64,000 bases of DNA from Blasia pusilla. Taxonomy: Eukaryota. Shown here in pieces: positions 1 to 50,700 of the stretch (positions within the stretch are counted from its first letter, which is position 1; the number at the start of each line of letters is the position of its first letter). The stretch lies in assembly GCA_050084515.1 (NCBI GenBank), contig CM114271.1, forward strand, positions 20,150,001 through 20,214,000. Direction: 5' to 3'. A program made the translations under genes and the position numbers. The notes beneath the pieces are model-generated. The model had not been told where the DNA came from. It saw nothing but the letters and a program-made list of their open reading frames with translations, and ran no database searches.

Positions 1-1250
1 ATGGCTAAGCTTGGGTCAACAGTACCATCCACATTTGGAAGATGACATGGCGCACAATTACGCACATGGTCCTTCCAAACAACTCCATCACGACCCTCCA
101 ACATGAGAACTCCAGAAGCTAACACCTCGCGCACTCGTAAAATAGTGCGGCCTGCCGTCACATCCAACGTTATCGGTGCAATCTGCTGCAAATAGAGATA
201 GTCCCCCACATGGAACCTACAAATCGATGGTCGATAACCTCCACCCCGAATGGTTGCATACCGCAACGTATCCCTGTGTTGAGCAATGGCAAGATTCTCA
301 AAGGTGTTGGCATAACTCTCCGAAAAGAGCTCGCTCACGAGAACACACTCTCATCCACATCTTTGGGTCATCAAGGTTCACCACCTCACTAGACTCCCAA
401 CAAATTGCTGCTGGCAAGTGTGGATCTTGGCCGTATAACAGAAAATAAGGTGAGAAGGAAGCTAAGGATGCTTGGCGACTGAACCTATACCCCATGGCTA
501 ACCATGGCAACCGAATATCCGGTCTCCAAGATGCCCTTCAGAGGCCATACTTGCGCAATGCCCTCTTCACCGTCTCGAACCACACGCTCAGCCAAACCAT
601 CCGCCCTGGATGATCTCGAGACGTGGTCCGATGATCAATCAACGCCTTGTCACACAAGACCTGAAACTCACCTTGAAACTCAGACTGGTCGGTCAAGACT
701 TGGTGGTGCACCAAAATGACTAAGCACTCTATCAAGAAACGATACGCCGTTCCTCACTTGCCTTGTCGTAATGCCACCAACTCAATCCACTTGGAGAAGT
801 GCTCCACCATCACCAACACATATCGATGATGTCATCATACCAACGGTAACGGTCCCGCAAAGTCCACACTCCAATGGTAACCCAACCCCATAATAGGCAA
901 GGGGTGTAACTGTGGTGTAGGGGCATTGAATGATGCCCTCACCCGGTCACAAACCATACAACATGACACCAATCGCTGCGACCGAGTATGCATGCCACGC
1001 CACCAATCTTGACCAAGGAGTAATCTATACGACGCTTTACCCCAAAATGTCCCAACTCCTCATGGGCATGTCGCACAATGCGCTCTCTCTGAGCCAAATA
1101 CGGCACTACTCGTACTCTACCATCCTCCCACACATGGAGAATATGTGTTCCCTCCAATCGATACCTCTTAGCACGTTGAAGAACACGGTCTCGCTCCTTG
1201 GCACTCACTATGCCTGGCACCCTACTGGTCCGTAGGAACTCCAACACCAA
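1..1250 (-). pseudogene. Integrase of G1 (zinc-binding domain, DDE core, start of a C-terminal extension), frameshifted
   Basis: HEELGHFG, WSVDFAGP near 850-875, EHFSKW, LTDQSEFQGEF, HRTTSRDHP, FSPYFLLYG. The reading frame is still open at the edge: WKDHVRNCAPCHLPNVDGTVDPSLA. Confidence 0.9.
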
Positions 1251-1370
1251 CGCATCATCATGAATATCACGCTGATCCGTACCACCATCTCCAACCTTAG
1301 GATCTCAAGGTGGCCATCTACCCTCGACTAGAGTAAGATATCATGTGGTCCTCCATACTAGAGTCCACCC

Positions 1371-1870
1371 CTAACCAACATAAAAGGCGGATGCATGCCA
1401 ACCTGGCACCATCTCCTCATCAACCTCGCCATGCCATCTAGCCCCAGTTGTATCCTCTTGGCTAGTACATGGGTTCCTACTCAACCCATCAGCATCAAGG
1501 TTGGCAACTCCAGGTCTATGTACCACCTGGAAGTCATACTCCTGTAAGATAAGAGCCCACCGTGCAAGCTTCCCTGTAAGCTTGTCAGACTCCATCAACC
1601 ACTTGAGCGGCTGGTGATTAGTAACAAGGGTGCCAAACAAGTAACACCTAAAGTGTGCCACAGCCCACACTACTGCCAAGCACTCTCCCTCATATGAACT
1701 ATAGCGCGACTCCGCCGCATTATTCGAACGACTTGCATAGGCCACCACAAACTCCATGTGCTCATCATCATGTTGTGTCAACACCGCTCCAAGTCCCAAC
1801 CTACTCCAATCAGTGTGTAACTTATTGGAGTAGGTTGGGACCCTCTGATAGGTCTCCTCAAGATAGGCGC
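1371..1870 (-). pseudogene. RNase H of G1
   Basis: LHTDWS (about 1805-1822), GLGAVLTQ, VAYASRS, YSSYEGECLAVVWAV, TNHQPL, KLARWAL, ADGLSR. Confidence 0.93.
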
Positions 1871-1927
1871 CGCCACCAACTGGGCCTTAAGCTCCACAAA
1901 AGCTCTCTCCTGATCATCTCCCCAGTG

Positions 1928-2935
1928 CTACTCTTGATCTGATTTCAGAAATTGGTTCAAAGGCTTTGCCATAGCACTAAATCCCTTCACATACCTCCGA
2001 TAGTAGTTCGCCAATCCCATGAATGCTCGAACTCTACTCACATCTATCGGACGCGGAATAAGTGCAATAGCCTCCACCTTTGCTTGTTGAACTCCCAAAC
2101 CACCTGGATAGATCACATGACCCAAGTACTCAACATCTTCATGGAAGAACTTACACTTTCCTGGATGCAAACGTAGACCATGAGCTTTCAACCGCTCAAA
2201 CATCATCTGCAAATGTATCTGATGCTCCTCCACCGTGGTACTGAACACCAAGATATCATCAATGTAACACCGAACAAAATCCAACCCTGCTAGGATCCTG
2301 TCCATCACTCTCTGAAACTCGGCAAGTGCATTCTTCAGCCCAAAGGGTAAGAATTTCCACTGGTACAAACAATCCTTGCCATGAGTGTTGACACCCCAAA
2401 ATGTTGTCTTGGCCTTGTCACTCTCCCGAATTGGCAATTGATGGTATCCTGCCCGAAGATCCAAAGTACTGAAAATTTTTGCCTGTTCCACCACATCAAA
2501 GATCTCTCGGTGTAGGCATGGCATACCTATCGGCCTTGGTTTGCCGATTGATAGGACAAGAATCTCCACACATCCGCCTATCCGTAGTTGCCATGCATAT
2601 CCTTTTTAGAGCATGATAGTGGCCGATGCATACTCTCCATGCGACAACTCCACTAATCCAGCCTCCAAAAGGTCCAACGTCCTACTCTGAATCAGGTCCC
2701 TCTCCATATCACTATATCGGTAGGGACGACAGAAGATTGGCGTATCACTGGCCAAATCAATCCGTATACCGGGTCCAACCAGAGAACCCAACTCCTTCAT
2801 GCTAAAGGCAAAACAACTCCTATAAGCACGTAGGAATTGTGTCAAGTGTCGTTTCTCACCTCCCGTAAGCTTGGGCCCAAGTAATGGCTCCCAAGTCTCC
2901 TCCACTGGCACACTAGAGGGAGAGGACAATGCCAT
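1928..2935 (-). pseudogene. Reverse transcriptase of G1
   Basis: PIFCRPYRYS, FSTLDLRAGYHQL, LPFGLKNA, YIDDILVFS, KCKF...YLGH, VRAFMGLANYYRRYVKGFS. Confidence 0.95.
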
Positions 2936-3207
2936 TGGCTGCTACGGAACCCCCTCATAAGATGGTACATCCTTAGCTACACCATCATCTGAGCAAATAA
3001 CTCCTCCACCAGCATGAGCAACCAACTCCACATGCCCACCATTACATCCCATTTGCTCCAAGGATGCAAAATACTACTCTCCTCGCCCCAAGCCGATGCC
3101 TCTACCGTCCCGGTAGCCATCGAGCTCATTACAAGGGGTGGAAGATCCATGACATAGTCCAAGTCGATCGCTCGGCCATACCAAGACTCAAAATCCAAGT
3201 CAAAAAT

Positions 3208-4140
3208 TCAGGTCCATGGCTGACCCAACACATGACGTCGTGAAGCCTCGAAATGGAAGCAAACTGTCACACAAAGAGCAAATCCCATCGCACGCTCTCT
3301 CTCATCAGCGTTAGGCTCCACCAACTCTCGCACATGAGAATCCCATACAAGCCCGGGACCACCTTCCCTGTATGCATGTGACGAGGGAAAACTCACAAAT
3401 GTGGGTAGTGCCATCCTAGGCTGGCCCACACGGTTCACCACTGCCATGGGTGACTGATCAATAACCCTCACCACCTGAGAAAGTCGCCCAGTATCCAAGA
3501 TACTATCCATTGTAAGGCAAGGATCCTACTGCACTGCATCATATGCTTGACATAGAACCTCCCTAGGCAACAAGTTTGTCCACCACAAGTGTGGACAATG
3601 TGCACGCGAGCCAACTTGCGCTGCATCCAACAACACCGCTGGTCCAATCCAAGACCGCACCTCATGAACACTCGCCATCATCCGGGTCCGAGTGTCACCC
3701 AACAATGGAACATTCTCCAAAATGTAAGCTAGAGCACGTTCTTGATGAACTTGAAGATGTCGTAACACCCGTAACATCTCCCAAAACAATCGAGACCTAG
3801 GCTCGTGTAATCCCTCACCACGACCAACACGTGTATGACCCTGACATGGCCATCCAACAATCACCAAATCCACAAGACCAACCCTCTCAAGGTCCTGCGC
3901 CCCCAACAATGCAATGTGTGACGGCAAAGCACGCTGGTACCCACAAATAGCTGATGGCGGCAACAAATCAGGATATCTCCGCATCAACTGACCAATATGT
4001 CGGGATGAGACTCTTTGGGCCATCTCATCTCGCTCCACATACACGTATCTCCGCATAGGAATACCGACGCAACATCATCTCATCTGACCAAACCAAAGTG
4101 CTAATCCCACCAAAGAGATCTAACACACAAATGCCCTTCG
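3208..4140 (-). pseudogene. C5 DNA-cytosine methyltransferase domain (DNMT3-like) within the G1 pol region, frameshifted
   Basis: Motif I GICVLDLFGGIST (4098-4136), II RRYVYVERD, IV DLVIVGWPCQG with the catalytic PC, RLFWEMLRVL, VI YILENV, VIII-like AHCPHLWWTN, IX EPNADERERAMGF, X-like RRHVLGQ. All are in canonical order. Confidence 0.92.
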
Positions 4141-4559
4141 GCGGATCGCCATACAATGGGTGTAGTATCCAAAGGGGATAACCAATGGACCAGAAGTAGG
4201 AGTCCGCCGTGGGGCCTCCTCTTCCTCGTGAGGTATATGACCTCACACCAAGCCTCTCACACCAAGCCTCTCCCGCCGTAGTGCACCGCCCGAACTCCAA
4301 AGTGAAACATCCAACGATGAGGATGCCCTTTGTTGCAAAAAATAGGGACCTCCTCTACCTCCTCATGCACAAGAGAATCCATAGCGAAGCATTACCCTCC
4401 AAAAGTCTCTTGGCCAAGTGACTACTCCACTAAAACCACCCACGGATGCTAACACTTTTGGGGAAGACCCTCCTGGTCGAGCCCCATAAATAAATCTCAC
4501 AGAACTTGGCTCATACGTCCATCCCGGACTGCCAACCAGGTCTATAAGACGCTGTCTCA

Positions 4560-5211
4560 CCCGATAATCCATCTGAAAACCCATCGGGTACACATCGCTC
4601 CTCCAACTAGTACATCATACAACTCGGGTGATGTGACTACCGTGAGATACTCCCAACCGGAGCTATCATCGCATGATCTGGTGTCAATCATGCAGAAAAC
4701 TTCTCCGTGTCATGAATTGAGACCTATCATTGGCTCCTCCAGGTGATGTTTGAATCTGGAAAGGGCAAGGCTCAAGCTCTGACCTCCGAATACCCAAACC
4801 AATACATGCCGCCTTTCCCAACATCAAAGGTTGGGCACCAGAGTCTAACAAGACTCTATTTGGTCTATACACATGTCCTGTAGGACTCACCAATCGGAAT
4901 ATCCCACTCCGATTGTCCAACATACATACACCAGGTGTAAGCCTCTCACGATCAATGGCTGGACGGGCTGGTAATCCATCGATCTTCGCCGCTGCTGCTT
5001 GCCAAGTAGCACTGGTACTCAATGCTACACCTAACATAGAGGGTCGCTCCACCGCAACACCCTCATCCACCTCAGCACGTGTAGCAATAACACCCCCACG
5101 TTCACACAACGTGGCTGCTAGCTGAAATACAGGAGCTAAGTCAACTCCTAAAGCCATCAGCTCCGTGGCCAAAAATAATGGGGATCCCAACACTAAAGTT
5201 GCCATCCGCAC
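4560..5211 (-). pseudogene. Retropepsin aspartic protease of G1
   Basis: VLLDSGAQPLMLG active site in ORF 4684..5211, and a YDVLVGG-type C-terminal motif near 4600-4620. It is in the same frame as the last gag ORF, separated by one TGA that reads TGG in G2. Confidence 0.85.
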
Positions 5212-5283
5212 ATCGCTCTCGATGATCTTTGATCTGTGTCTACTACACGCCGATGTAGATGCCTCATCCCCCCACTGTCGGTC

Positions 5284-7035
5284 TCAATAGGTCGCGTGAG
5301 GAACCATAGATGGAGTCCTAAGCACCTCAGACAACAAGAATGATTGGGGAAGCCTAGCTTGCCTCCCAGCCTCACCCCTCTGTGGGTCCAACTCCACAGT
5401 AGCACCAAGTGGCTCTAACGCTCGAGTGGCTCCTCTCGTAACTGCAGCCGATGCCTCAACCTGTGCTGCACTTGCCATATAAGAGAGATCATCCCCTCCA
5501 TAAGAGATGGAAGCCCCTGGTCCTGAACGTGATCTATGCTGGATACCAGCCCTAGTAGCCAACTTCTGATCCAACTGCTTAATCTTGGCACCCATAGTTG
5601 ACTCTGTCGTACTGGTAGGGGTAGCCACCGTAGGCTCTCCAACCACTGGTCCACCTCTACCACCCCTACCACCTCTACCACCTCGGCCTCTCGGAGCTAC
5701 TCCACCACGGCCGCGGCCTGATCTCAACTTTGGATGAAGATCAAAGCAACGCTCTCGAGGATGACATGGTCTCCCACAATGATCACACTAAGTTGGGGCC
5801 GACTGAGGCCCATCCTCCAAAGTCAGTCTCCCATCCTCTTGGGGACAAAACTTCTTAACATGATCACCTCCACATGTCCAACATGACGGTCCTTGCTGCG
5901 GGGCAAAAAATGAAGGCAATGGTCTCTGCGCAAGTGTCCCTCTAGGACCTGACTGAGGTCGTGTGTACCCCCCATGACTCCCACTACTACTACCACCACC
6001 ACCACTACTACGAGACTGTGAGGTGGGCTCCTGAACATGAGAAGTAGTTGTTGTATCCCTACTGAATGCGGATGTCACCACTCTCTCCTTCACCATGTTA
6101 AGCTCAATCTTCTCAGATAGAGCAAACACATGGGTCAATGTGGGTAAATCATCACTCATAAGAGTAGCATCACGTACCCTGCGGCGCAACTCTTTGTCCA
6201 AGATCCCATACCAAAACTGGACTGCCTGAGCCTCAGTCACACCTTGGATAACTGAAATCAAGCGTCGCATACGAGTGTATACCTCACGAAGACTCTCACC
6301 AGTCTTTCGCTCAAATTCTTGAAGACTCCTCAACTTCTCTGTCTTCACTCCCTGATAGTTCTTCTTCAACCTCTTGAAGAACTCTGCAGCTGGGCTAAAC
6401 GATGGTGGGGCACTAGTACCTCCACTAGTACCCCCACTGGTACCTCCATGGGTACCTCCACTGGTACCCCCACTCCGGCTTGTACTCGTACCACTCAACG
6501 TTGGGCTGGCTAGCATAGTAGGAGCACCTACCAATACCACCATGGGTGATAGACACATAGCCTGGAGACCAATATTGTCTCCACGCCTCAATCTCAGCAA
6601 CATGGTCCTTCCTAAACTCATGGTAATCATCCATGGGTGGTCCCTCCAAGTGCTGAAACAACCCCTTCCAAGCCAAGAAGGGTGTAAACAACGTGGCGTT
6701 CCGCAACATTTTCATATCACACCACGTATCAAACTCCTGCATGAAGTCCTCCAACTCAATGGTGCCCACTGCACCCGAGTATCCTCATGGGCCCTTCATG
6801 GCCCCATATATCCCGTCCATGTCCCAAATCAATGGAGCTGCAACACTCAATAACAACGTAGAAGACTCGGTGTTTGGAACACCCTCGTCCTCCTCTTTAT
6901 CAACCGTCGGAAGTGGAAAAGGTAGCCGATACCTAAATCCACTCCATGTGAAACCACCACTGTCCGCACCACAGTCCCCAACCAGACCAGCCGACATCTC
7001 TGTGATGACCAACGCCGGTGCCGCACCACCACCAA
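5284..7035 (-). pseudogene. gag: gag region of G1 (capsid-like domain, two zinc knuckles, RGG-rich tract), frameshifted
   Basis: ORFs 6425..6769 and 5788..6630 (EFFKRLKKNYQG...GESLREVYTRMRRL) and knuckle CWTCGGDHVKKFC. A second knuckle CDHCGRPCHPRERC is at about 5745-5790. RGRGGRGGRGG is in ORF 5284..5727. Confidence 0.88.
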
Positions 7036-8599
7036 ATTATCACCACTAAGTAACCAAGTGACGTCGATGTCGCTATACTATTCTAGCTCTACTAGCTATG
7101 AGTGTAGGCAACCTAACCTGTAATCACCACAAGAAGCCTCCCACGGTCTACTTGTCATCACTCCAGCCTCACTACCGGTAGCACCCATGAATAACACTAC
7201 TCTGGAAATCAGCATCAACCCTAACAATGGGCGCGCAAGCAAGAAGCAACGATGGAGGGGATCCAAACACAGGAAGTCCAACGACAACCCTCCAATCGCA
7301 AATGGAAATCAAGGGAACACAATCCACCAAACGTGGCGCCCCCTGAATCCACAAAACCCACCACACAATTCTAACGCAATAGCTACTCCGCCGCGGGTCG
7401 ATGACGTGCTAGTGAAACTCGCAGCACCTGAAAATATCACTTGCATGGAGAGGCTACACCGTACTATGCGCTAGAGGTCCATCAACCAAAAACCTGAGAT
7501 GCATAAAACGCCTAACACCTCTCCGAACAACACCAAATGAGCTACACCAGTATGTACACCGGCATAGTTAAGAACTCAGCAGTTAAGCGTCTTCCAGGCA
7601 GAATAGCCCAAAGATGGGTGACCAGTTATGCAACACTCAAATCACAAATCCTGCAAAAATTTCTTGACACCCAAGCAAGCAAGCTTGCTTGCTTGCTCCT
7701 TGCTCCTTACTACGCCTCTCACGCCCACTCGCCCGAGTTGCCTCGAAGCATCAAAATGCCAAGACATGCCCCTATCGCCCCCTTCGCCATGCTTTGCTAT
7801 GGAGCGAGGCCCAACCAGGGCGCCCCCAATGGGATAGGCGTCTCCAACAATGAACCAGTCACCAACCAACCAGCCCCTCCGATCCGCTGTCCACCATAGC
7901 CAGACCTTGAGCTAGTCCGCAAAATTTTGATAAGAAATTTCTTCACAAATCCTTGACCAAAATTGAATCTATTTCAACCAAAATTCAATTGACCACCATA
8001 GCTATCTCTCCACAAAACTCAGCTACAACCGAGCTTTGTACTTTGAGCTAAAAATCAGACAAACTTGCTGTCCATACACCTCCAAAATCGCAAATCCGAC
8101 AGCGCTTCCGCCCAGTTTCATGCACGCAAAAATCCGTAACGCTCCACACACTCAAGCAGATAGCTTCACATGAGATCAAAATACAAGTAGCAATAGGAAC
8201 CTCTCACCCGATCTGGATGAACTTCAACAGAGCTTCCGCACTCCACGCTCTCCACATCAGAAAACCGTCGAACACGAACCAGAATCTTCAATCCTTTATA
8301 ACTTCCAACTCCTCTAAAGCACATTGGAAAGCTCTCAGCAACGCGCTTCTTTCCCAACCAACCATGCACCAGATTCACACCTCCAACATAGGCCACAAGC
8401 CATGAACATCCACGGACGAGTACACAATCAACCCTAACCAGATCCTAATGATCCACAATCGAAGCTACCATCGATCTACTCTAGTTCTTTGAGTGAAATC
8501 CGTGAAAGACCTTCTGTTATAAAACACGTATAGAATCACATACAATCGAGCCAAACCCACTCCATGATGGGAGAATCTAGGTCGAAGCTTGCGGGAAAC

Positions 8600-8861
8600 A
8601 CCATAGCCAAGAGCTCTACTCACTACCAAGGCTAACTCCCAACGCAACAGGCTCAACTCAAAGAACTAACTGTTCTTTGAGTGCACTCCACCTTATATCC
8701 TCCAACCTAAGAGCGGGCCCTACTGGAAAAGTCACCCTCAACTGAGTAACCCCCAACCCTATGTATGAAATCGCATCTCTACCTAGACACTGCGGCCCTA
8801 CCTAAGGTATGGCCTCTACTAGCACACTATACTCTACGACATAATCCGTATGGTCATGACA
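8600..8861 (-). repeat. Start of the 5' LTR of G1 (inner boundary not determined)
   Basis: Minus strand begins TGTCATGACC at 8861. Short blocks (CTAGTAGAG; CTCAGT..GAGG.TGAC; AGTAGG..CC) are shared with the LTR start at 14861. No PBS was identified. Confidence 0.65.
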
Positions 8862-9285
8862 AGACCTTTGCATGCCCAATCGTATCAAAGATCTCCTCAG
8901 GGGTGGGCAAGGCATACCTATCGGCCTTTGTCTTCTGATTAATAGGTCGGTAATCTCCACACATTCGCTTATTCGTCCAGTTGCCATGCACATTCTTCTT
9001 GGCGGGCATGACAGTGGCAGATGCATACTCTCCATGCGACATCTCCACTAGTCTTGCTCCTACTCTGAATCAGAACCCTCTCCATGTCACTTTACCTGTA
9101 GGGTCGTTGGAAGATCGGCGTGTCACTCAACAACTCAATGCAGATCCTTGTACCCTTGAGTGTACCCAAATCATGCATACTAAATGCAAAATAGCTCCTA
9201 TAACTCATAAGGAACTAGTGTTTCCGACGCTGCTCTCCTCCTGTCAACTTAGGGCCCATATCTGGCTCCCAAGTCTCCATCGTGA
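8862..9285 (-). pseudogene. RT N-terminal fragment of G2
   Basis: ETWEPDMGPKLTGGE, PIFQRPYR, SHGEYASATVMPAKK, RMCGDYRPIN, DRYALPTPEEIFDTIGHAKV, then truncated. Confidence 0.9.
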
Positions 9286-9402
9286 CTACGATAGGACTCT
9301 CCGACGCGGATGTCGGTGGTTGCTATGGTGCAACCCCATCTCGGACAATAGAACTCCCATCTCCACGTGCAGTACTCGGAACCACGCTCATTGTTGTGGC
9401 TA

Positions 9403-9890
9403 TCATCTCAATGAGCGCACCTGATGTACACTCGTCATCACGCGAGACCTCGAATTGCCCAAAATTGGCACATTCTCCAAAATGTATGTTGGAGAATGAG
9501 ACTGATGCTCTGGTAAATGTTGCAAGATCCGCATCATCTCCCAAAACAACATGGACCAAGTGTCAGCTAACCCGCTACCTCGTCCAACACTCGATTGGCC
9601 CTGACACAGCCAACCAGCAATGACCAAGTCTATGGTCCCTACCCGCTCCAAGTCCTGCGCACCCAACAATGAAATGTCCCTCGGTAGGGAACTCTAGTAA
9701 CCCTGAATGGTGGACGCAGAAAACAAGTCGGGAAAACGGAGGCGTAACAGTGCCACATGGTGAAGTGAAGCGCACCTTGCAACATCATCAATCTCCACAT
9801 ACAAGTACTACTGCACGTGCACTCCAACGTGCAAAACAAAAGCTAACCCAGTGATGGTCCCTCCAAAGAGATCCAACACTCGAATACCCT
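9403..9890 (-). pseudogene. C5 DNA methyltransferase domain of G2, C-terminal half deleted
   Basis: Motif I GIRVLDLFGGTITGLA (9841-9888), DLERVGTIDLVIAGWLCQG (PC changed to LC), MLFWEMMRIL and YILENVP. Motifs VIII-X are absent because the sequence jumps to the pre-RT spacer near 9400. Confidence 0.88.
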
Positions 9891-10339
9891 TATCTGGGAT
9901 GCACCACACAATCGGGGTGGTGTCCAAAGGGGTCATAGCTGCACTCCTGCCTATCTAGGGTTCCTCTGACCCGTCACACTCTAGTGCAAATGTCTTGCTC
10001 CACGCGGTCTGCACATGCTCAGTGGCTAAGCGTCGAAGCTCCTCAGTGGAGCCCCAAAGCGGCACCTCTCCTCCACGAACTGATGTGGCTATCATGACAC
10101 TCCTCTCCATAGAAATTTCAAGAACGGGAGTATCCTCTGCATGGACATGTCCCTCAATCAAATCTCTAGGCCAAGTGATGGCACTACTAAATGTTGCTAA
10201 GGTCGCCATCTCTCTTGGCCGTTGCTCAATCACTACACATGTGAATCAAACGGGTAATGAGCTAAGGCGTCCATCACTTGACTGCTATCCTCGTCTGTAG
10301 GATGATGACTCCTCCCAGTAATCCAGAGAAAAACCCATC

Positions 10340-11070
10340 GGGTATAACACTGCTCCACCAACCAAAATGTCGTAGGACTCTGCATCAGTCACTATCGCCT
10401 TGGCTCACACCACGGAATCATCTGTAGGATGTCCCGGAAAAATCCTCACCATGACCTCATGTCGGATGATATACTGTGTGGTACTCACTCCACCCAAGGA
10501 TGTCTATATCCGGAATGGATAACACTCCATATCGGCTCTCGTCAAGCCCAATCCTCTGAATGACGCTTTCCCCAACATCAGGGGTTGCGCTCCAGAATCC
10601 AACAAGACACATTGTGGACTAAAAGCTCTACCTCTGGGACTCACCAATTGGAAGACCTCTCCTCGGTTATCCAGCACCACAACACCAGGAGAAGCCATGG
10701 CACACTCTATCCCGGGTCTAGCGGGCATCTTCACCATCCTAGCAGCCGCAGCCTGCCATGAATCTGACGTGGACGGCCCAACCATCCGCTCCAAGGGCAG
10801 GTCCATCACCTCCTCTCCAATCACCTCTAAACGTGATGCAGGAACTCCAACTCCGCGCTCACATAGTGAAGCGGCCAGCCAAAAAGCCTCGGCGGGCGTA
10901 CCTCCCAACGTCATAACATCGGAAGTAGAAAATAAAGGAGTGCGGTACACAACGGTGGCCGCTTCCAACAGCGTGCTCCACACATGCCCCTCTTGAGCAT
11001 CAACAATAGGAGTCTTCACACTTGCTTCTCCCATCGCCCTCTCGTGCCTGCACACCAACAACATCACCAA
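10340..11070 (-). pseudogene. Aspartic protease of G2
   Basis: VLLDSGAQPLMLGKA in ORF 10504..11070 and SYDILVGGAVLYPMGF near 10330-10380. Confidence 0.85.
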
Positions 11071-11169
11071 GTCTCCAAGAACTTTGATGAGGACCCATCA
11101 ATGGGGTCCTCATCGCTTTGGACAACGTGACAGACTGAGGAAGCTAGTCTATTTTCTGGCTTCCCCTCA

Positions 11170-12810
11170 CTATGGATCCAACTCTCCGGCTGCTCCACGC
11201 GTCACAAGTGCGGCGGCCTCCATTTGGGCAACCCCACACATCCAACCAAGATCCTCCATATCTTTGGCTGCTCCATATGATGTCGATGCCACGAATCCGG
11301 CATTGGGTAACCTCAATGCCATAGCGGCAATCTGCTCCTGTAGCTGCTGTATCTGAGCAGCCATCCCAGCCTCACGTACGGCGTCTCCCTTGGCGCGTCT
11401 AGGTGGTGGTACTCTACCTCCTCCATGGGCAGCTCCATCACCCTGTAGGGCAACTCTAGCTCCTCGTCCCCCAACAGGACCACCTGATGCACGATCTCTA
11501 GGCCTACTCGGACCAGCTACTCGCTCTAGTGCCCTCTATGGCCCTCGGTCCAGACGTAACTCAGGATGTAAATTGAAACACCTGGTGCATGTATGACCAT
11601 ACCTATGACAATAGTCACATTGATAACCTCGTGGTGCAGCACCATCTCCTCCACCATGCTGAGGCACACGTCCGTGACCTTGACGAGTGCAATCGCGCTG
11701 ATGATGGGCTCCATCACATGACCAACAAGTAATAGTAAGCGGATGCTGCTGAGCCGCATATGAAGGCACATGTCTCTGTGGCACGGCCTCCCGGTATCCT
11801 CCCTGAGCTGGTGGTGCCACTGTCGACCTATCTTGGAGTCCACGTTGCTGCATAGGTGGTGCAGACAAATCGTGACTGCTCTCGCCCAGAACCCATGGTG
11901 GCTACGCTCTCCTCCGCCATGTTGCGCTCAATGTTCTCGGCGGTCCAAAAAACATCTCTCAAAGTAGGGGAGGTGTTCATAAGAAGCATCCCCTCCCGCA
12001 CTCGTGTCCGCAGGGTTCGGTCCAACATCGCATACCATGACTGGATAGCCTGAGCCTCCGTCACCCCCTGAGTGAAGTTGATCAACCGGCGCAAGCGAGT
12101 GTAAATCTCATGCAAAATTTCACCCGGGCGCCTCTGGAAGTCATGGATGCTCCGCAACTTCTCCGTCCGTACCTCTGGTAGCTCGCCCTCAACTCAACAA
12201 AGAACTCAACCACGGGGTTGAACTTGGGACGAACCCGACTAGATGGTGCAATTTCTCCAGTGCGAGTGACCCCTCCTAAAACATCACAAGTGGAAGAGAA
12301 AGTAGCCTCTCCTAACTCCCCCTCCTCATCTGGGAACGGCTCGTCCATGACACATAGTGTGGGTCATAGTAGAGTCGCCATCCCTCAATCTCTTGGGCCT
12401 ATCTGTGGGAGAACTCATGGTAATCGTCCATGGGCGCCTCCACTAAATGCTGGAACATGCCATTCCATGCTGTAAACGGATTGAACTCTCTAGAGTTCCT
12501 ATCCCGCTATGAGTCACACCAACTCCTAAACTCCGCAATGAAGTCGTGTAGCTCTATAGTGCCTACAGCACCCGAAAATCTACGGGATCCTCTACCCCGG
12601 TTGTCCATCTCGTTCGCCCAACTGGTAGGACCACTCAATGTGGACGGTGGATCACTAACACACTCCTCTACAGGCTCACTCTTGTCTGAAGACAACACAG
12701 AAGGAGATCGAGGTGGTCTCTCACGTGGAGACCCTCGAAACCTCGCACCACTTCGAGTAAACCCTCTAGAGGTACTCTCAAGTCCACTACCTCGCCTCTC
12801 AAAATCCTGA
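11170..12810 (-). pseudogene. gag: gag region of G2 with two zinc knuckles
   Basis: FSGAVGTIELHDFIAEFRSWCD; GEILHEIYTRLRRLINFTQGVTEAQAIQ; knuckles CWSCDGAHHQRDC and CDYCHRYGHTCTRCFNLHP. Collinear with the G1 gag. Confidence 0.87.
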
Positions 12811-16958: not shown

Positions 16959-22314
<5,356 letters not shown>

Positions 22315-40389: not shown

Positions 40390-43300
40390 GATTTGGAGGA
40401 GACGGGAGGGAACGGCGGAGCTCTACGGGATGACGGCGGGGATGGGAAGGAGATTGATGGTGGGATGGAGGATGGAGGGGGGTCGTGTGTTATATCAAAA
40501 CGGAAATACCGACTTCCTCTACGTTTTGATCCCTACCGTCAATCTTCTAGTGAAGTATTTTCATTTTATTTTGTTTTGTAGATTTTTGTTGTTTTAGGGT
40601 CCTCTTTGTTGTCTCGTTTTGTTGTAATGCTTTGAATGTTTCCAAGACAACTCATGTTATTATTCCACACCACCCTTCTTCTTCTTTTTTCTTCTTTTTT
40701 CTCTATGTCCTTATTCACGTTCCTCATTCACGTTTGACCCATGTTTTTCTCCCTTATCCCACTCTATTCCCATCTATTTTTTCCATCTATTCTTTTTCCA
40801 TATCACTAGTACCTCCATACTATCTCTACATTATTTTGGGAAGGGGTTGGGCCATATGTCATAGGTGAAGATGGTAGATGAGAGTTCATACTAGGGAGAG
40901 CATTTTCATGGACGGGAAGAGAGTCGATTACCATTAGGGCTACTTCGAATGGGGGTTGTGGGGCAGATTTTGGTGGGGTTTGTCTCTCGAGTTTGACGGA
41001 GGGGGTCATGTTCTCTTCTTGGTGAGAAGTGTCCATGCCTCGACCCGCATCGGTCCCTCGCGTAGGGGCTCGTGGGTTGTCTAGCCGGGATACGAAATGC
41101 CCTTGTTGTCCCAAATTCTTCACTCGTTCAGGAATTCGGAACCATTTAGCGGCTAAACATCCTGACTTTGATAGATTTGGATGGGTGGTTCCTCCAGTCG
41201 ATCATGGATTCTCACCGATGTTTCATGCATCATCGCCCCCTCTCGAGGCATGGGAGTGGTTGAGGTCCCACCTTGGCAGCATCACAGGTCTCTTTGAGAC
41301 CCGTTTTCCCTGCCCGAGGTTGTTTCATAGGATCCCCCATGCTATTCGGGTTGAGCTTCGCCAGTCTTTCCGCCTTCCCTTATCTAGGATCGCACTTGAT
41401 CCTCTGGATGAGCTCTCGTGGTATCTACTACTTCTCCTTCCACGATGGTGTCTTTGCTATACCCGCAACGGGTCATCGTGAAACCTCCACACGTATTCAA
41501 CGCTTTATGTTTAGGGATTGGGAGAATCTTCAAAATGAGCATGTACTTCGAGTAGAGGCCTTAGCTAAGGATTCTCCCACCCAACATGCCAATCATGGGA
41601 GGCCATCAATACGACAACGCCTTTGATGAAGTCTACATTTGGGGAAGGTTGGTGAGTTTTCACGTGCAGTTCGAGCATTGGGTCCTCTTTTTGCGGCAGT
41701 TCCAAGTCCGAAAAAAAAGTGGCTCTCTTAGAAGCTCTTCACCCTCCTTGAAGTGGTGATGCTCCACCTTTTATGGAAGACTATACAATGGAGCTTGACT
41801 TCGAGGTTTTTACAAGGGCTTTTCTACATACTCCTCGCTTATCAGCAAGCGGGCTATCAAGGATGGTTTTTGAGCATCTCCGCGATTGCTTTATCCCGAC
41901 AGATTTAGCAAGTAGCTTTGTCTCTCTATAAAAGGTGTGTGCACATATGGTGGCAGGTTATCTCCCATTCTTTATCTCTAGGCTCTTAGGGGCTTGTCGT
42001 TTTTTGGCTATGGATAAGCCTCCTTCAGGTGTGCGTCCTTTGGCTATTGGAGAGGTTTTATACCGCTTGGTTAGTCGATCCCTATGCTTGCAATTTTTTC
42101 CTCACTTTAGTGCCCACTTTTTTCCTCATCAATTTGGAGTGGCAATTCCTGGAGTTTGTGAGGCTGTGGTGCATGGGATTCGCTCCACTCTTGATTTTTA
42201 TCCAGATTGGGTAGCAATTCAAGTCGATGTGGCTAACGCATTCACTTCAGTTTCTCGTGCGGCCATCTTTGAGGAGTTACGTTGTGCATGAGGACAACTT
42301 GCAAGCCTCATTCCATTTGTTTGCTCCTTCTATGCCTAGGATAGGTCCATTATCTATTCTCATCATGCTACTTCCGGGGAATATAGTATTCTACAATCTA
42401 CAGCCAGGGGAGGGAAGGCTGGCCATAGAGAGGTTGTGGCCCGATTGCCGCGCTTTCGAGGAGGTGATTGGGAGTCTCTGTAGAGCGAGTTCGTGGCATA
42501 TGCCAGAGGTAGCACTCCATGTGGTTTCCCAGCAATCTCAGATTTGCGGACGATGTAGGAGACTTGGGCGAGCCGGGGAGTACTCGCGAGCGGCTCGTGC
42601 GCTCCGCCCTATGGATATGGCTCCTCCTTCCGATGTTACCATCAACGCCCTCCGGAGGCTACACCCTCGTCCAGTGGTTGACATCCCATCATTTGTACGT
42701 GACTTCCATCCTGACACGACCTTATGCCTAGACCCGTCCCTCTTTGCACGGGCACTCGGGCGTTCTCCTAGGATAGCAGCTGGAGGGTTGTCCGGTATGA
42801 TGTACGAACACCTTCGTGATTGCTTTCCCTCCCAGGAATTTGCTAGCGGCTTTTTTGAGTTGCTTCAGGGTTGCCTCTCACCTAGCTCAGGGGAGAGTGC
42901 CAACAGCAGTAGCCCAAGTATTGGGGGCGGGGCGACTTTTGGCGTTATCGAAGGAGGGTGGTGGGATCCGTCCGATTGCCATAGGGGAGGTGCTCTTGCG
43001 GTTGGTGAGTCGCACTATCGCTTTGCAGTTCCGTGAGGCTTTCCAGTCACATCTGAGTCCGCACTAGTTCGGAGTTGCCACACCAGCCGGTTGTGAGGCT
43101 GTAGCCTTAGGTTTGAGGGCTTGTTTAGATATACATCCCAAGTGGGTGGTTCTCCAAGTTGATGTGGAGAATGCCTTTAACTTAGTGTCTTGGGCAGCTA
43201 TCTTCACGGAGTTGAGAGACGCAGAGGGTCCCATAGTGAGCATGGTTCCCTTCGTGCATGCTTTTTATGGGGCCCTCTTGGCTCTCTATTTTCACCACGG

Positions 43301-45215
43301 TAGGTTCGAGGAGGAGGTCACGATCTTGGAGTCTGCTACCGGGATGCGTCAGGGTGATCCCTTGGGTGGTGCATTGTTTGCTTTGGCTCATTATCGAGCG
43401 GTTCTTTCTATGGTGGAGGCTTTCCCAGGTTGCATTTTCCCTTTGTTGGCAGATGATACTCACATTGTCGGCCCTGGAGACTTGGTTGTTCCTGCATTTC
43501 AGCACTTTTCAGCACAGTTGGCACACGTCGGCCTCGCGGTGAAGGTGGGAAAGTGCAAGGCTTGGTCTTCATTAGGCTTGTCAGCGGATATTCATTTACC
43601 CGAAAATTTTTTGACACCTGTTGGAGGGCTTCGCGTCTTGGGAGTCCCACTCGGGAGCCAGGACTTTGTATTGAGTTTTGTGGCAGCGGCTCTTACCGAG
43701 GATCTTCTTCATGTCAACGATCTCACAAGGATTGGTGACCCTCAAGTAGCTTATAAAATCCTCTCGTCATGTTTTTCCCGCAGACCTGGTTATCTGTGTA
43801 GAACCGTGTGGGCGACTAGCCATATTTCTTCCTTGTATAGATCCTTTGATAGAAAGATTATGCAAGCGTTTGGGGGATCTTCTAGGACCCGGCTCATTAG
43901 AGTGCCCCGCGGGGGAGTTAGCTCGTAGACAGGCTTCTTGGCCGATTGCCTTTGGTGGAGTAGGTCTCATAGCGATTGAGTTAGTGGCGCCTTCAGCCTT
44001 TTTAGGGAGTTGGGCCACTGTAGCACCCCTCCTTTGCTCCTGATTTTTGGTTAGGGATAGACCGCTACTTTTACAGACGTTTCCCAGGTTGAGGATGGTC
44101 TTTTCCCACTTCAGTCTTCACTCACAGCTTGTAGAGACTCCCTTCTTGTTGAGGCTAGAGCAGTTCTTCCCGCTTTCTCTTCCCTAGTTACCTCCGGACA
44201 GTCTGGGCTCCAATCTTCTTTGATGGAAGCCCACTTTGATGCATTTTTTAGAGCTACTATGTCGGATGGGAATATCCCCATGGAGGTTCGGGCCTGTATT
44301 CGCTCTTGCTCCGGTAAGGGGGCATGCTCATGGGTGGGGGCTCGTCCCCTCATCCCGGCTTTCCGCATCGCACCACTTACCTACACTACAGCGATGAGGT
44401 TTCGACTGGGCCTACCCCAACCAACGGTGGTTGGTTCAACACATTGCGAGTGTCGTCGGAGTCTAGATCCACTTGGTGTGCATTTGGCACCGTGTCTAGT
44501 TGGGGGTGAGAGGATAGCCACTCACGATGCAGTGCGGGATATTATGTTCTCTATTGCTCGGGAGAGTGGATTCCATGTACAAAGAGAGAGGCACTACTCC
44601 ATGCGGGATTCCCTTATCCGTGTTGATCTCTACATTACGAGGGAGTCTGAGGTGGTGGTAGCGGATGTTGTAGTGACGGATCCTACACGGAAGACGGCGC
44701 GAGCTCAAGTGGTAGCACAAGGGAGATTGCTACAAGGAGCGGCGGCGGTGGTCGACTATAAATGGCGGACCCACATTTATAGTCGACTTCATGATGGACA
44801 TCGATTTATCCCCCTAGCCATTGAGATGTACGGGGCGATGGGGGAGAGGTTTGACTCGTTCCTTACGGATTGCGCCCATCATCTCCAGTCAAGAAATGGG
44901 TTGTCCTTAGCCACTACGATACTTTATTGTAGGCAACGGGTCTCCATAGCTTTGCAGCGCGCCCAGGCAAATGGGCTTCTGCGGCGGGCTCATGCGGTTG
45001 GAGACGCCAATGCTAGAGGCCCACTTAGTAGTAGTCAGAGGTCTCTAGGTGTTGCTGATATTGTCTCTACTGTTGGTGATTTTGGTCGTTAGGGGGGAAT
45101 GCCCCCTTCTTTCTCCTCCGGGCCGGTTCCGGCCTCTTGAGGTCTATTTTTTGGGTCTCCATGCCCCCTCTTTTGTATCGTGATGGATTTTCCATCCTTT
45201 TTCTACATATATATT
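40390..45215 (+). mobile_element. CRE-clade non-LTR retrotransposon (RLE type), family A copy 1, with an internal family-B insert
   Basis: C2H2 finger CPCCPKFFTRSGIRNHLAAKH. RT motifs GIRPIAIGEVLLRL, LQVDVENAFN, GMRQGDPLGGALFA, LADDTHIVGP, LRVLGVPLG. C-terminus CECRRSLDPLGVHLAPC...THDAVRD, RVDLYI, VVADVVVTDP, FIPLAIEMYG. The UTRs are homologous to 52320-55820. Confidence 0.88.
41466..42407 (+). other. About 940-bp insert of CRE family-B sequence inside CRE copy A1
   Basis: Reverse-complement match to 49680-50425. Removing it restores the TACCCG-GGAGGGAAGGCTGG join seen uninterrupted in copy A2 near 54680-54715. Confidence 0.85.
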
Positions 45216-47799: not shown

Positions 47800-50700
47800 A
47801 TAAAATAGACCTCAAAAGAGGACAAAGAAAGGTAATAACATCTCAAAAGAGGAATCAAAAAATGCATAAAATAAGGCAAAAAGAAAATGGCAACTAGCCA
47901 ACGCAAACACCGACTCAACGAGCTACACGATTGATAACCTGAAACAAATCTAACAAGAACACGAGTGGTTGGTCAAACGTGAATGGATGACAAGGCAAGC
48001 GACCCCCACCACCTCCGCACGACGTATCAATGCCAAGGCTTGTGCACGTTGTAAGACCACTGAGATGCATTGCATAAAATAATGAGTAACTACAACGAGA
48101 GAAGGACTACGGGAAGGGGCAAGATGATGATTTTCGAGGGAGTGGTGAGCACATGTTTTCAGGAAATTATCAAAAGACACATGTAAATGACCGAATACTT
48201 CCAGTACAGAAGGAATAAATCCATTAGTTGGATGTCTCACAACATAACTTAACTCCTTGATTCTTGCTGCAGCTTCGGCCGCTGAACCTTTGGTATATGC
48301 GGCTCGACAGACCAAGTCAAAACGTGTTGGATTAGCAACCACCATATCACCTAGTGTCTAGAATCCACCTCGAGACATAACAAGATCCACTCTCCAACAA
48401 GAGGTTGCTTGTGTGGTTGAAGGTAGGACATGGAGTTGCTCTTGCCCAACGGTGTATCTTGCAATACGAGCCACCGATGCTACCTCCTCTCTAATGACAT
48501 CATATGTGGCCATTCATTCTCTACCATGTGCACATTGGAGAATATGGATACCCTTGGCATCAATGGGATCCCCGCATACACAATTCGGCACACCTAACAG
48601 AGAAGGATGGGGAAGTCCAAGGCATAACTGCAAAGCTGTCGAGAATATACTTCGAGGAAGATGAGATGGAAGAATAAGAGGATTTGCAGTAAGCCACGCC
48701 CCCATTCCGGTACCAGCACATGAACGCAGACAAGCTCGATGAGCGTGAGAGGATGCCTCGGAGAGAATGCTAGAAAAGTTGATTTGATGCAGATTCTCGC
48801 AAATATGCTCTTGAAGTTGATCAAGCCCTTCCGTAATCAATTGACTGAAAGGGGGTAGAATTGCTTGTGTAGCAAGAGGAAGAAGGGCTCGTGCAGATCT
48901 AATTTTTGTTGAAATAAAAAATCCCCCTCCTCTACATGGGCGATATAATCCATCAAGATAGGTGTATCTTCTTGGAGAAACCTCGAAGCTATAATCGGTG
49001 CTACCAACGCCCAACTCCCCAAAAAGGCTGCGGGAGCAGATGAAAATGTGGAGGAAAGTCCCACCCCTCCAAAAGAAATAGGCAAGATAGCTTGTCGTGA
49101 AGCCAAGACACCATCCTCTCCCTCAAAGGTATTCGGGCCAAGGAGTTGACCAAAAGTTGCCAAGATAGAAGCGTCAAAAGAGGCCAACCGATGTAAGAAC
49201 CTTAGAGTGGGAGGACTAGTGCGAAGAATGAAGGACGGACGTCGTAGAAAACATTGGGAGAGAATCCCATAAGCCACTTGGGGATCCCCTAGATGAGGAA
49301 ATAAATGAAGCTATTCCACGTCTTTCAAAAGGGCCTCATCCAAGAACTTTGAGACATAGCCGATGAAGCCGATTGGGACCCCAAGAACCCTAACCCCTTC
49401 AATGTAGATGGGAAAATCAAGAGTAGGTAGGGTGAATGTTGAGGGAAGGCATGAAGGAGACCATACTCCAAATTTACTAGGTTGGACTTTAAGGTTTAAG
49501 AAAGAGAGTTGCTCCACGAAATGGGTATAAGGAAGAACCACTTCAGAAGGAGGGCCTATAATGTGAGTGTCATCAGCAATAGAAGGGAAAAGACAAGATG
49601 GAAATGCTGATGCTTGAAGGGCACAAAAATGGGCAATGGCAAAGAGTGGGCCATCCATGGGATCACCTTGACGTGTGTAATAGCATGATGAGAATAGATA
49701 ATGGACCTATCCTAGGCATAGAAGGAGCAAACAAATGGAATGAGGCTTGCAAGTTGTCATGCACAATGTAACTCCTCAAAGATGGGGAAAATCAAGTGAA
49801 TGCGTTAGCCAAGACTTGAATTGCTACCCAAGGGATAAAAATCAAGAGTGGAGGAACCATACTCCACAACCTCCAGGAATTGCCACTCCAAATTGATGAG
49901 GAAAAAGTGGGCACTAAAGTGTTTAAGAAAAAAATTGCAAGCATAGGGATCGACTAAATGGGTATAAAAAGGAAGAACAAGGAGGCTTATCCATAGGCCC
50001 CTAAGAGCCTAGAGATAAAGAATGGAGATGCCACCATATGTGCACACACTTTTATAGAGAACAAGCTAATCGCGGAGATGCTCAAAAACCATCTTGAAAA
50101 GTAGAAAAGCCCTTGTAAAAACTCGAAGTCAAGCTCCATTGTATAGTCTTCCATAAAAGGTGGAGCATCACCACTTCAAGGAGGTGAAGAGCTTCTAAGA
50201 GAGCCACTTTTTTTTCGGACTTGAATGCGCAAAAAGGGAATCAAGTGGTGAAAACTCACCAACCTGCCCCAAAAATCGGCGTTGTCGTATTGATGGCCTC
50301 CATGATTGGCATCCATGGGGAATAGCTAAGGCCTCTACTGAAGTACATGCTCATTTTGAAGATTCTCCCAATCCCTAAACATAAAGCGTTGAATACGTGT
50401 GGAGCTTTCACGATGACCCGTTGCGCCACCCCTTGGAGGGAGGACTAAAACCCATTATGGGAAGAGTAATAGGAGATACAAAGCATTGATATCTGTGGGA
50501 TCAGCGCTAACCTTTCTAATGGGAAAAGAAAATCTTATTGGATAATGGGGCAAAGAGCAATAGGAATGCGAGTGTAGAGTCTAGGACAAGGAAGACCTGG
50601 ATGGAAAGAGCGAAGGAGATTAATTTGGTTTAATTATGTCCAAGCAGTTGTGGGGAGTGCAATAGGAGGTGGTATTGGGTTAGGGATTGAAGGCCATTGC

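Follow-up and report, generated by a model that had tools for sequence, protein, structure and literature searches.

Is the DNA cytosine methyltransferase (DNMT) that lies within a Ty3/Gypsy retrotransposon of Blasia pusilla a regular, selected part of that element, or an accident of the copies in which it was seen? The question is raised by a stretch of 64,000 nucleotides from the assembly GCA_050084515.1 (contig CM114271.1, forward-strand positions 20,150,001 to 20,214,000; this whole stretch is called the window below), in which the initial annotation had described a long terminal repeat (LTR) element encoding its own methyltransferase inside the polyprotein. Our results make it quite likely that the window holds two dead Ty3/Gypsy copies, one probably nested in the other, of a family that carries a DNMT3-type enzyme as an integral and selected part of its coding region. 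Window positions 1–8830 (copy 1) form, on the minus strand, an element ordered gag, protease (PR), C5-cytosine methyltransferase, reverse transcriptase (RT), RNase H (RH) and integrase (IN). The parts of copy 1 and its sister element, copy 2, are as follows, where ORF is open reading frame and ORF1 the gag-PR-DNMT part.

8482–8830, minus strand: copy 1, 5' LTR remnant; homology covers 8482–8681 and the outer edge near 8830 is extrapolated
5287–6820, minus strand: copy 1, gag, interrupted by stops and containing two CCHC zinc knuckles (tblastn with Marchantia protein P0012)
5284–5286, minus strand: copy 1, TGA between the gag and protease pieces; TGG at the aligned codon of copy 2
4684–5283, minus strand: copy 1, retropepsin-type protease region, VLLDSGAQPLMLGK (ORF translation; colinear with the protease of Marchantia P0012/P0002)
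3208–4177, minus strand: copy 1, inactivated C5-cytosine methyltransferase domain of DNMT3 type with motifs I–X in normal order (PF00145, relatives)
2945–3207, minus strand: copy 1, frameshifted C-terminal part of ORF1 beyond the DNMT (tblastn with the tail of Marchantia P0012, PTGTV..HPWS.WDV)
2942–2944, minus strand: copy 1, in-frame TAG ending ORF1, a candidate leaky stop; CAG CCA ATG follows (2941–2933)
1928–2941, minus strand: copy 1, reverse transcriptase with YIDD (ORFs; RVT_1, E 1e-29, in 2605–1928)
1371–1886, minus strand: copy 1, RNase H (RT_RNaseH PF17917, E 1.3e-30; PF17919, E 6.8e-21)
1–1304, minus strand: copy 1, integrase, continuing past window base 1 (weak Integrase_H2C2 match, E 0.0098)
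8842–12611, minus strand: copy 2, with gag, PR, the N-terminal half of the DNMT and an N-terminal fragment of RT (tblastn, blastn, translation)

The methyltransferase of copy 1 is spread over three adjoining minus-strand ORF pieces, as the initial annotation had described: canonical motifs in order on a single strand, with no introns, between the protease (DSG in ORF 5283–4684) and RT (YIDD in ORF 2605–1928). ORF 4354–4025 carries motif I (ICVLDLFGGIS); ORF 4074–3526 carries RRYVYVERDE, VIVGWPCQGH, RSRLFWEMLRVLRHL, ILENVP and HLWWTN; and ORF 3525–3208 carries NADERERAMGF and VLGQ. Catalytic motifs I (FxGxG), IV (PC), VI (ENV), VIII, IX and X are thus all found in copy 1. Its identity as a C5-methyltransferase, also part of the original description, was borne out by Pfam, where the 182-residue middle piece (4074–3526) matches PF00145 with 32.7 bits against a cut-off of 22 (E 6.9e-8). 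The DNMT ORF of L006, a better-kept related locus, scores 36 bits with the same profile, and other relatives were already annotated with it. Identity of the 182-residue piece to its bryophyte relatives is 72–77%.

The class of METHYLTRANSFERASE was assessed with the relative P0001, which is intact and 77% identical to the window piece. Searched against the PDB with phmmer, P0001 matches DNMT3A (6e-12), DNMT3B (1.4e-9) and DNMT3C (6e-9), then DRM (1.2e-8 to 1.7e-4, over only part of the domain), bacterial HaeIII/HhaI (3.5e-4 or weaker) and DNMT2 (E 0.007). An AlphaFold model of P0001 (pLDDT 89.2) gave the same answer in Foldseek, the top matches being all DNMT3A/B/C (E ∼2e-19, TM-score 0.80–0.85 on target length, 20–23% identity). 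On sequence and predicted fold the family methyltransferase is therefore best described as DNMT3-type, in agreement with the resemblance noted originally. Plant DRM enzymes are circularly permuted and the family domain is not, its motifs running I, II, IV, VI, VIII, IX, X, so that a DRM identity is ruled out. The PCQ, ENV, RxR and motif IX residues are invariant in 20 diverse members that are 30–46% identical to P0001. The family sequence has what is expected of a C5-methyltransferase, and neither window copy can be active. The ESM Atlas placed P0001 nearest to a cluster labelled 'Streptophyta' and gave nothing more.

The DNMT is a fixed part of the family and not an accident of the two window copies, because it occupies the same position across protein matches, metagenome loci and L006. 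A search for longer proteins with the 182-residue piece returned 34 matches at 44–77% identity, all 34 with the DNMT, among them 16 from Marchantia polymorpha, three from Calypogeia fissa and three from Sphagnum (fallax, troendelagicum and tenellum). The Marchantia models consist of gag-PR-DNMT (1248–1278 residues) or continue into RT and RNase H, and further searching brought in Riccia sorocarpa, Marchantia paleacea and, with 41% identity, Mesostigma viride, an alga of the streptophytes. From 156 stretches confirmed in a metagenome scan we retained 80 loci (L001–L080); in these the DNMT sits at the same position, without introns, and is colinear with PR on its upstream side and RT on its downstream side, mostly sharing their frame. 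Copy 1 is ∼82% identical in DNA to the nearest of these loci. L006 reads LTR, gag, PR, DNMT ORF, stop, RVT_1 ORF, RNase H, H2C2, rve, LTR; Pfam found no chromodomain in it, and no PWWP, ADD or DUF targeting or reader domain beside the catalytic domain in either the window or L006. LTR pairs occur in five related loci (L006, L050, L061, L063 and L076), and those of L006, L050 and L076 are 86–94.5% alike, ∼310–340 bp long and have TG..CA ends; no clean target-site duplication could be read and no primer-binding site was identified in the related loci. The family element is accordingly ∼9 kb long with LTRs of ∼0.3 kb. The methyltransferase is thus not limited to two copies, and the nearest relatives lie in embryophytes (liverworts and Sphagnum mosses), compared with the charophyte and dinoflagellates of published reports, so that the range extension envisaged by the initial annotation holds. 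From the relatives, the host of the window would most likely be a bryophyte. The family belongs, as a land-plant member, to the known Gypsy-DNMT3 type of element.

Selection on the DNMT was assessed from Nei-Gojobori distances in a protein-guided alignment, with the codons of 79 copies mapped on P0001 (2997 pairs). The median ratio of nonsynonymous to synonymous distance (dN/dS) of the DNMT falls with rising dS through 0.84 (dS < 0.1), 0.60, 0.52 and 0.32 (dS 0.5–1) to 0.19 (dS > 1), where the pairs are non-independent and values of dS above 1 are saturated. RT/RH behaves similarly (0.50, 0.46, 0.35, 0.28, then 0.47 in 24 saturated pairs), while PR drops from 1.27 to 0.32 and gag from 0.92 to 0.18. 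Between lineages, copy 1 compared with L004/L006 gives 0.27–0.31 for the DNMT and 0.15 for RT/RH, and L004/L006 compared with L039 gives 0.17 for the DNMT. A ratio near 1 across the family, which the initial annotation had named as evidence to the contrary, is therefore not what is found: deep pairs lie at 0.17–0.31 and shallow pairs at 0.6–0.84. Such a fall of dN/dS with divergence is the pattern expected of constrained lineages and neutrally decaying copies, and the codon alignments indicate that the DNMT is under purifying selection between lineages, followed by neutral decay of individual copies. The 321 stops in family copies are mainly C-to-T changes (CGA to TGA 102, CAG to TAG 65), and the catalytic motif residues are the commonest state even in decayed copies.

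Decay is evident throughout the window copies. Residue 1 of Marchantia P0012 maps to 6820 in copy 1, and residues 1–97 are 77% identical by tblastn; the gag ORF translations contain CWTCGGDHVKKFC and CDHCGRPCHPRERC. Forced alignment to the intact P0012 ORF shows at least 12 stops in gag-PR-DNMT, including (first bases) TGA 6787, TAG 5790, TGA 5286 and TAG 3528, together with frame changes. Of the earlier suggestion that gag and PR share a frame interrupted by one TGA that reads TGG in the sister element, the alignment of TGA with TGG stood, whereas a single interruption did not. A recoding site at TGA 5286–5284 is ruled out, since copy 2 has TGG and P0012 has one ORF across the site; this TGA is one of many decay mutations. 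The spacing between motifs I and II is 37 nt in copy 1, compared with 30 in relatives, and the C-terminal end of the DNMT carries paired frameshifts, the apparent 'LGQPWT*' being a frameshift and not a simple stop. Outside the coding region, 8681–8482 is matched at 75–77% by the LTRs of the related full-length elements L006, L050 and L076. At the other end, the integrase part of Sphagnum fallax P0033 maps to 921–529 at 60% (tblastn), and the remaining integrase and the 3' LTR lie outside the window, which explains why a direct-repeat search of the window found no LTR pair.

Copy 2 is 72–79% identical to copy 1 in nucleotides (blastn) and has at least 13 stops. Its DNMT N-terminal half lies at about 9932–9403 with the catalytic PC changed to LC (AGWLCQG), and its RT N-terminal fragment at 9289–8842, where RT is broken off; an internal deletion has removed the C-terminal half of the DNMT and the junction with RT. 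Because the extrapolated LTR start of copy 1 adjoins this truncated RT (end 8842), copy 1 was probably inserted into copy 2.

Members of the family are transcribed. Three stranded RNA runs carrying the host species label (X21, X22 and X23) were searched, reads being placed at 88% likeness or more, and 3482–4161 reads were placed per run, drawn from 6–12% of each run. Depth is 15–208× with the first mate on the plus strand, compared with 0–19× in the other orientation; by the usual convention for stranded libraries, a first mate on the plus strand was taken as minus-strand RNA, that is, the sense strand of the element. At the TAG 3528–3526 of copy 1 the reads show CGG (54/55 and 55/55 in X21, similar in X22 and X23), which is the Arg codon of the relatives, so that sense transcription comes from family members open at this codon. 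Between 14 and 27 reads per run connect 304 to 1326 through 39 other letters; the expressed relatives therefore have a replaced segment in the integrase region as compared with copy 1.

Several observations weigh against this account of the family. Both window copies are dead, with broken reading frames; the DNMT domain is intact in one piece, without stops, in only 2 of the 80 metagenome loci; and intact elements are seen only as annotated or called proteins, not as DNA. The ratio of 0.6–0.84 for the DNMT in shallow pairs fits decay after insertion, yet it also means that most copies are neutral debris. Only ∼3% of the RNA reads are at least 99% like copy 1, most being 90–99% alike and therefore from other copies, and transcription shows neither translation nor transposition.

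At E ≤ 0.001 an exhaustive profile search yielded 4431 representative clusters, and at 1e-30 it yielded 308; the 150 matches listed all have E of 1e-47 or lower, and many are proteins of 1000–3456 residues. Two Pfam layouts occur among these matches: CCHC..DNMT..RT..RH..IN, as in the window, and RT-RH-DNMT-IN-PHD. The second (among the matches listed, P0045, P0058, P0070, P0094, P0122 and P0198–P0237) is common in metagenome contigs and is named in Haematococcus lacustris, Chromochloris zofingiensis and Cymbomonas tetramitiformis. No Klebsormidium protein was among the matches listed from the word-index and exhaustive protein searches. In a DNMT tree of 45 rows (DNMTs borne by transposable elements only, three partial rows dropped, quick IQ-TREE, midpoint root) the two layouts separate into two clades, each with SH-aLRT 96, and the window copy falls within the bryophyte clade (99), nearest to P0001, P0008 and two Marchantia rows.

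Within this tree the Marchantia polymorpha rows join the moss-like copies and the window copies, and Calypogeia, a liverwort, stays outside the group. Taken with the 77% identity of the first 97 gag residues to Marchantia, this points either to old lineages that co-exist or to horizontal transfer between bryophytes. A further row, P0261 (455 residues, labelled as 'DNA cytosine methyltransferase' of a Candidatus Obscuribacterales metagenome-assembled genome), is 49% identical to P0001 and is nested in the eukaryotic retrotransposon clade; it probably stems from a eukaryotic contig that ended up in a bacterial bin. The composition of the family is also unusual. The sense strand (window 1–12611 and L001–L080) is G-rich and C-poor, with a median GC skew of +0.23 and T in excess of A, and the same sequences have a CpG observed/expected ratio of ∼0.6–0.7 with TpG and CpA in excess. 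This bias may come from deamination of methylated C or from an intrinsic bias of the replication cycle; it was rejected as a mark of copy 1, since it is family-wide.

How the enzyme is expressed depends on the junction between DNMT and RT. The initial annotation had envisaged a single gag-PR-DNMT-RT-RH-IN polyprotein, and this part did not survive: in the bryophyte lineage, as judged from the aligned copies, gag-PR-DNMT is a separate ORF1, closed by a conserved in-frame stop and followed by RT-RH-IN (ORF2) in the same frame. RT is in the frame of the ORF1 tail in 49 of the 63 copies in which the tail and the start of RT are both present. The stop falls at one and the same codon in 44 copies (TAG in 30, TAA in 14), 51–54 nt before the RT homology, and the codon after it is CAA in 40 of these 44. 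In copy 1 the context is TAG CAG CCA ATG at 2944–2933, and the RT ORF (2941–2606) begins directly after the stop. Complete products that start with Met end 45–55 residues past the DNMT in three lineages, namely Marchantia (..PPLEQVS, 1248–1278 residues), the moss type (..SPKVFA) and a clade of ∼50% identity (six products of 1330–1339 residues, ..ALSATK).

We somewhat favour the reading that RT-RH-IN is made by readthrough of the conserved UAG, ORF1 (Gag-PR-DNMT) being the main product, because the UAG context resembles the UAG-CAR-YYA leaky stops of plant viruses (tobamovirus type). Copy 1 (CAG CCA) and L039, from a lineage at 64% (TAG CAA CCA), fit the plant-virus consensus at six of six positions. 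In L075, from a lineage at 49%, the context is TAG TAG CCA, and the codon after the stop is possibly derived from CAG. Like the leaky stops of plant viruses and the gag-UAG-pol junction of murine leukaemia virus, the bryophyte junction has an in-frame UAG, directly after it CAA/CAG and next a codon rich in pyrimidines, and the polymerase continues in that frame. As in alpharetroviruses, in which PR is encoded in the gag frame, the protease would be made with Gag. Unlike in those systems, the stop sits after PR and DNMT and not after gag, and unlike in the plant-virus hexamer the last base is C in most copies; readthrough here is a prediction from sequence.

Readthrough has its own difficulties. 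Most moss-type copies read CAA CCC, which is five of six positions of the consensus; two more distant full-length relatives, P0048 and P0249, run from DNMT to RT in one ORF (in P0048, CCHC, DNMT, RVT_1, RNase H, H2C2 and rve are all within it); and RNAalifold found no conserved RNA structure downstream of the UAG (covariation term −0.2), the pairing of a pyrimidine tract with a purine tract that it drew being rejected as evidence for the same covariation term. In addition, most copies have an in-frame ATG 6 nt, or two codons, past the stop (TAG CAA CCC ATG in moss-type copies, TAG CAG CCA ATG in copy 1). This ATG supports the main rival, termination followed by reinitiation at the nearby start codon; this, or a separate mRNA for RT-RH-IN, is possible and the less probable explanation. 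In L039 the ATG is replaced by GTG and in L075 it is displaced, whereas the stop and CAR-CC are kept; neither reinitiation nor a separate mRNA requires ORF2 to be in the same frame, as it is in 49/63 copies; and RNA depth passes the junction without a step (bins 2845–3081 and 3082–3318).

If ORF1 is the main translation product, as the readthrough reading predicts, the DNMT would be made in the same amount as Gag. It could then enter the particle as part of Gag-PR-DNMT, be freed there by the protease and methylate newly made cDNA of the element itself, with CG the most likely target, as for DNMT3 enzymes, so that new insertions would arrive already methylated. Methylation of CG resembling that of gene bodies might spare such insertions from the non-CG/H3K9 silencing of plants; alternatively, pre-methylation may damp the element's own activity. 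A particle-borne DNMT acting on its own new cDNA is our leading guess, and a tentative one. For the Klebsormidium and Symbiodinium elements, release in the particle and methylation of cDNA has already been proposed in print (de Mendoza et al. 2018, PMC5890265, in the text available to us).

The DNMT may instead be kept for another role, such as m5C methylation of genomic RNA, or binding and tethering that directs integration, a function that chromodomains and PHD fingers have in other Gypsy elements. The bryophyte lineage has no chromodomain (L006), in its sister clade the DNMT is accompanied by a PHD finger at the C-terminus, implying that chromatin reading matters to such elements, and the domain of the Klebsormidium element, KnitGypsy-Dnmt3, gave no detectable methylation in yeast, a result its authors called inconclusive (PMC5890265, available text) and one that also tells against cDNA methylation. 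We nevertheless regard this role as unlikely: FxGxG, PCQ, ENV, RxR and motifs IX and X are invariant or nearly so in the 20 members, which argues for catalysis, and the nearest solved relatives are DNA and not RNA methyltransferases, DNMT2 being reached only at E 0.007. Action in trans, with the host genome or competing elements as the target, is more doubtful still. At the stoichiometry of Gag much enzyme would be free in the cell, and accidental activity on the host genome is raised in the published discussion (PMC5890265, available text), whereas no targeting domain (PWWP, ADD or DUF) lies next to the catalytic domain. That the DNMT is a host DNMT3 gene fragment or an independent insertion inside the two copies can be dismissed with hardly any reservation, for although regions rich in transposable elements hold nested fragments and copy 1 itself is apparently nested in copy 2, this is contradicted by the colinear placement of the DNMT in the 80 metagenome loci, in L006 and in Marchantia, Calypogeia and Sphagnum proteins, by its lack of introns and by dN/dS of 0.17–0.31 between lineages.

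Beyond the two copies, the whole window resembles nested transposon debris with no evident host gene. Remnants of RT ORFs like those of long interspersed nuclear elements (LINE; non-LTR) lie at 20118–20768 (plus strand), 42215–45092 (plus), 47950–49706 (minus) and 52622–55080 (minus), and include two related pairs in opposite orientation. A long microsatellite of the CT/AG type at 21642–22247 (plus) reads (SL)n in one frame. Rfam gave no match over the 64,000 nt, and the ESM Atlas was uninformative for the one LINE-like ORF of the window that was submitted.

To the extent that the available literature covers it, functional data on retrotransposon-encoded DNA methyltransferases are so far heterologous and, for the Gypsy type, negative or inconclusive. 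Symbiodinium and Klebsormidium, in which such elements are known, do not lend themselves easily to manipulation. Apparently complete Gag-PR-DNMT ORFs are annotated in Marchantia polymorpha (e.g. P0012, 1278 residues), where transformation, genome editing and methylation mutants are routine, and this provides a tractable system in which methylation of cDNA, its sequence context, and evasion of or submission to plant silencing can be addressed. Public proteomes list family ORFs as 'hypothetical protein' or 'DNA (cytosine-5-)-methyltransferase', and numbers of host DNMTs could be overestimated because of them. If the stop is leaky, it would be an unusual placement of a recoding site for an LTR element, one that sets the dosage of the enzyme. 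Taken at its fullest, the picture would be of a live, transcribed land-plant Gypsy lineage in which the major product, Gag-PR-DNMT, has a DNMT3-type enzyme as its C-terminal domain, the replication enzymes are obtained through a leaky UAG and a stoichiometric virion enzyme pre-methylates the cDNA, which together with the green-algal clade would amount to an ancient strategy across Viridiplantae; we put this forward as a speculative combination that is unlikely to hold in every part.

A search of full-text literature found no report of a DNMT-bearing retrotransposon from a land plant; subscription papers, figures and supplements may hold one. In its available text, PMC5890265 does not mention Marchantia, moss or liverwort. 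Likewise to the extent of their available text, a 2026 preprint (10.64898/2026.05.21.726589) cites 'streptophytes (Gypsy-DNMT3)' as prior work and describes a different, DNMT4-like module in Cymbomonas; PMC12344493 notes, with the words 'as previously reported', that retrotransposons harbour some DNMT3s; the five Marchantia DNMTs listed in PMC5784723 include none borne by a transposable element; and PMC11982613, PMC9998398 and PMC9033089 add nothing further on the question.

Compared with known enzymes and elements, the family domain shares with DNMT3A, 3B and 3C, its best matches in sequence and fold, the same motif order I–X; it differs from them in its low identity (∼20–23% in structural alignments) and in having no PWWP, ADD or other reader. 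The green-algal and environmental clade, for which no description was found in the literature searched, has a related DNMT (34–42% identity) and is the sister clade (SH-aLRT 96). It differs in that its DNMT lies between RNase H and integrase, a PHD finger follows at the C-terminus and no stop separates the DNMT from RT. The Symbiodinium elements SymbioDIRS-Dnmt3 and SymbioLINE-Dnmt also encode cytosine DNMTs, and the former, like the bryophyte family, is DNMT3-type; its enzymes methylate CG de novo in yeast. These are, in contrast, a DIRS element with a tyrosine recombinase and a LINE, in another host kingdom, and independent acquisition was inferred by the authors (PMC5890265, available text).

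The closest published counterpart is KnitGypsy-Dnmt3 of the charophyte Klebsormidium nitens, a Gypsy-type LTR element with a DNMT3-type domain under purifying selection (Ka/Ks < 0.2; de Mendoza et al. 2018, PMC5890265, with the comparison limited to the text available). In common with it, the bryophyte family has an unpermuted DNMT3-type domain in its coding region, without introns and with the catalytic residues kept, in a streptophyte host. The two are set apart, going by the published description, by their hosts (land plants, namely liverworts and Sphagnum, as opposed to a charophyte), by plain LTRs in the bryophyte family as opposed to DIRS-like repeats in KnitGypsy-Dnmt3, and by the place of the enzyme, which is reported 'in the Pol polyprotein ORF' of KnitGypsy-Dnmt3, whereas in the bryophyte family it ends the Gag-PR-DNMT ORF1 before the stop.

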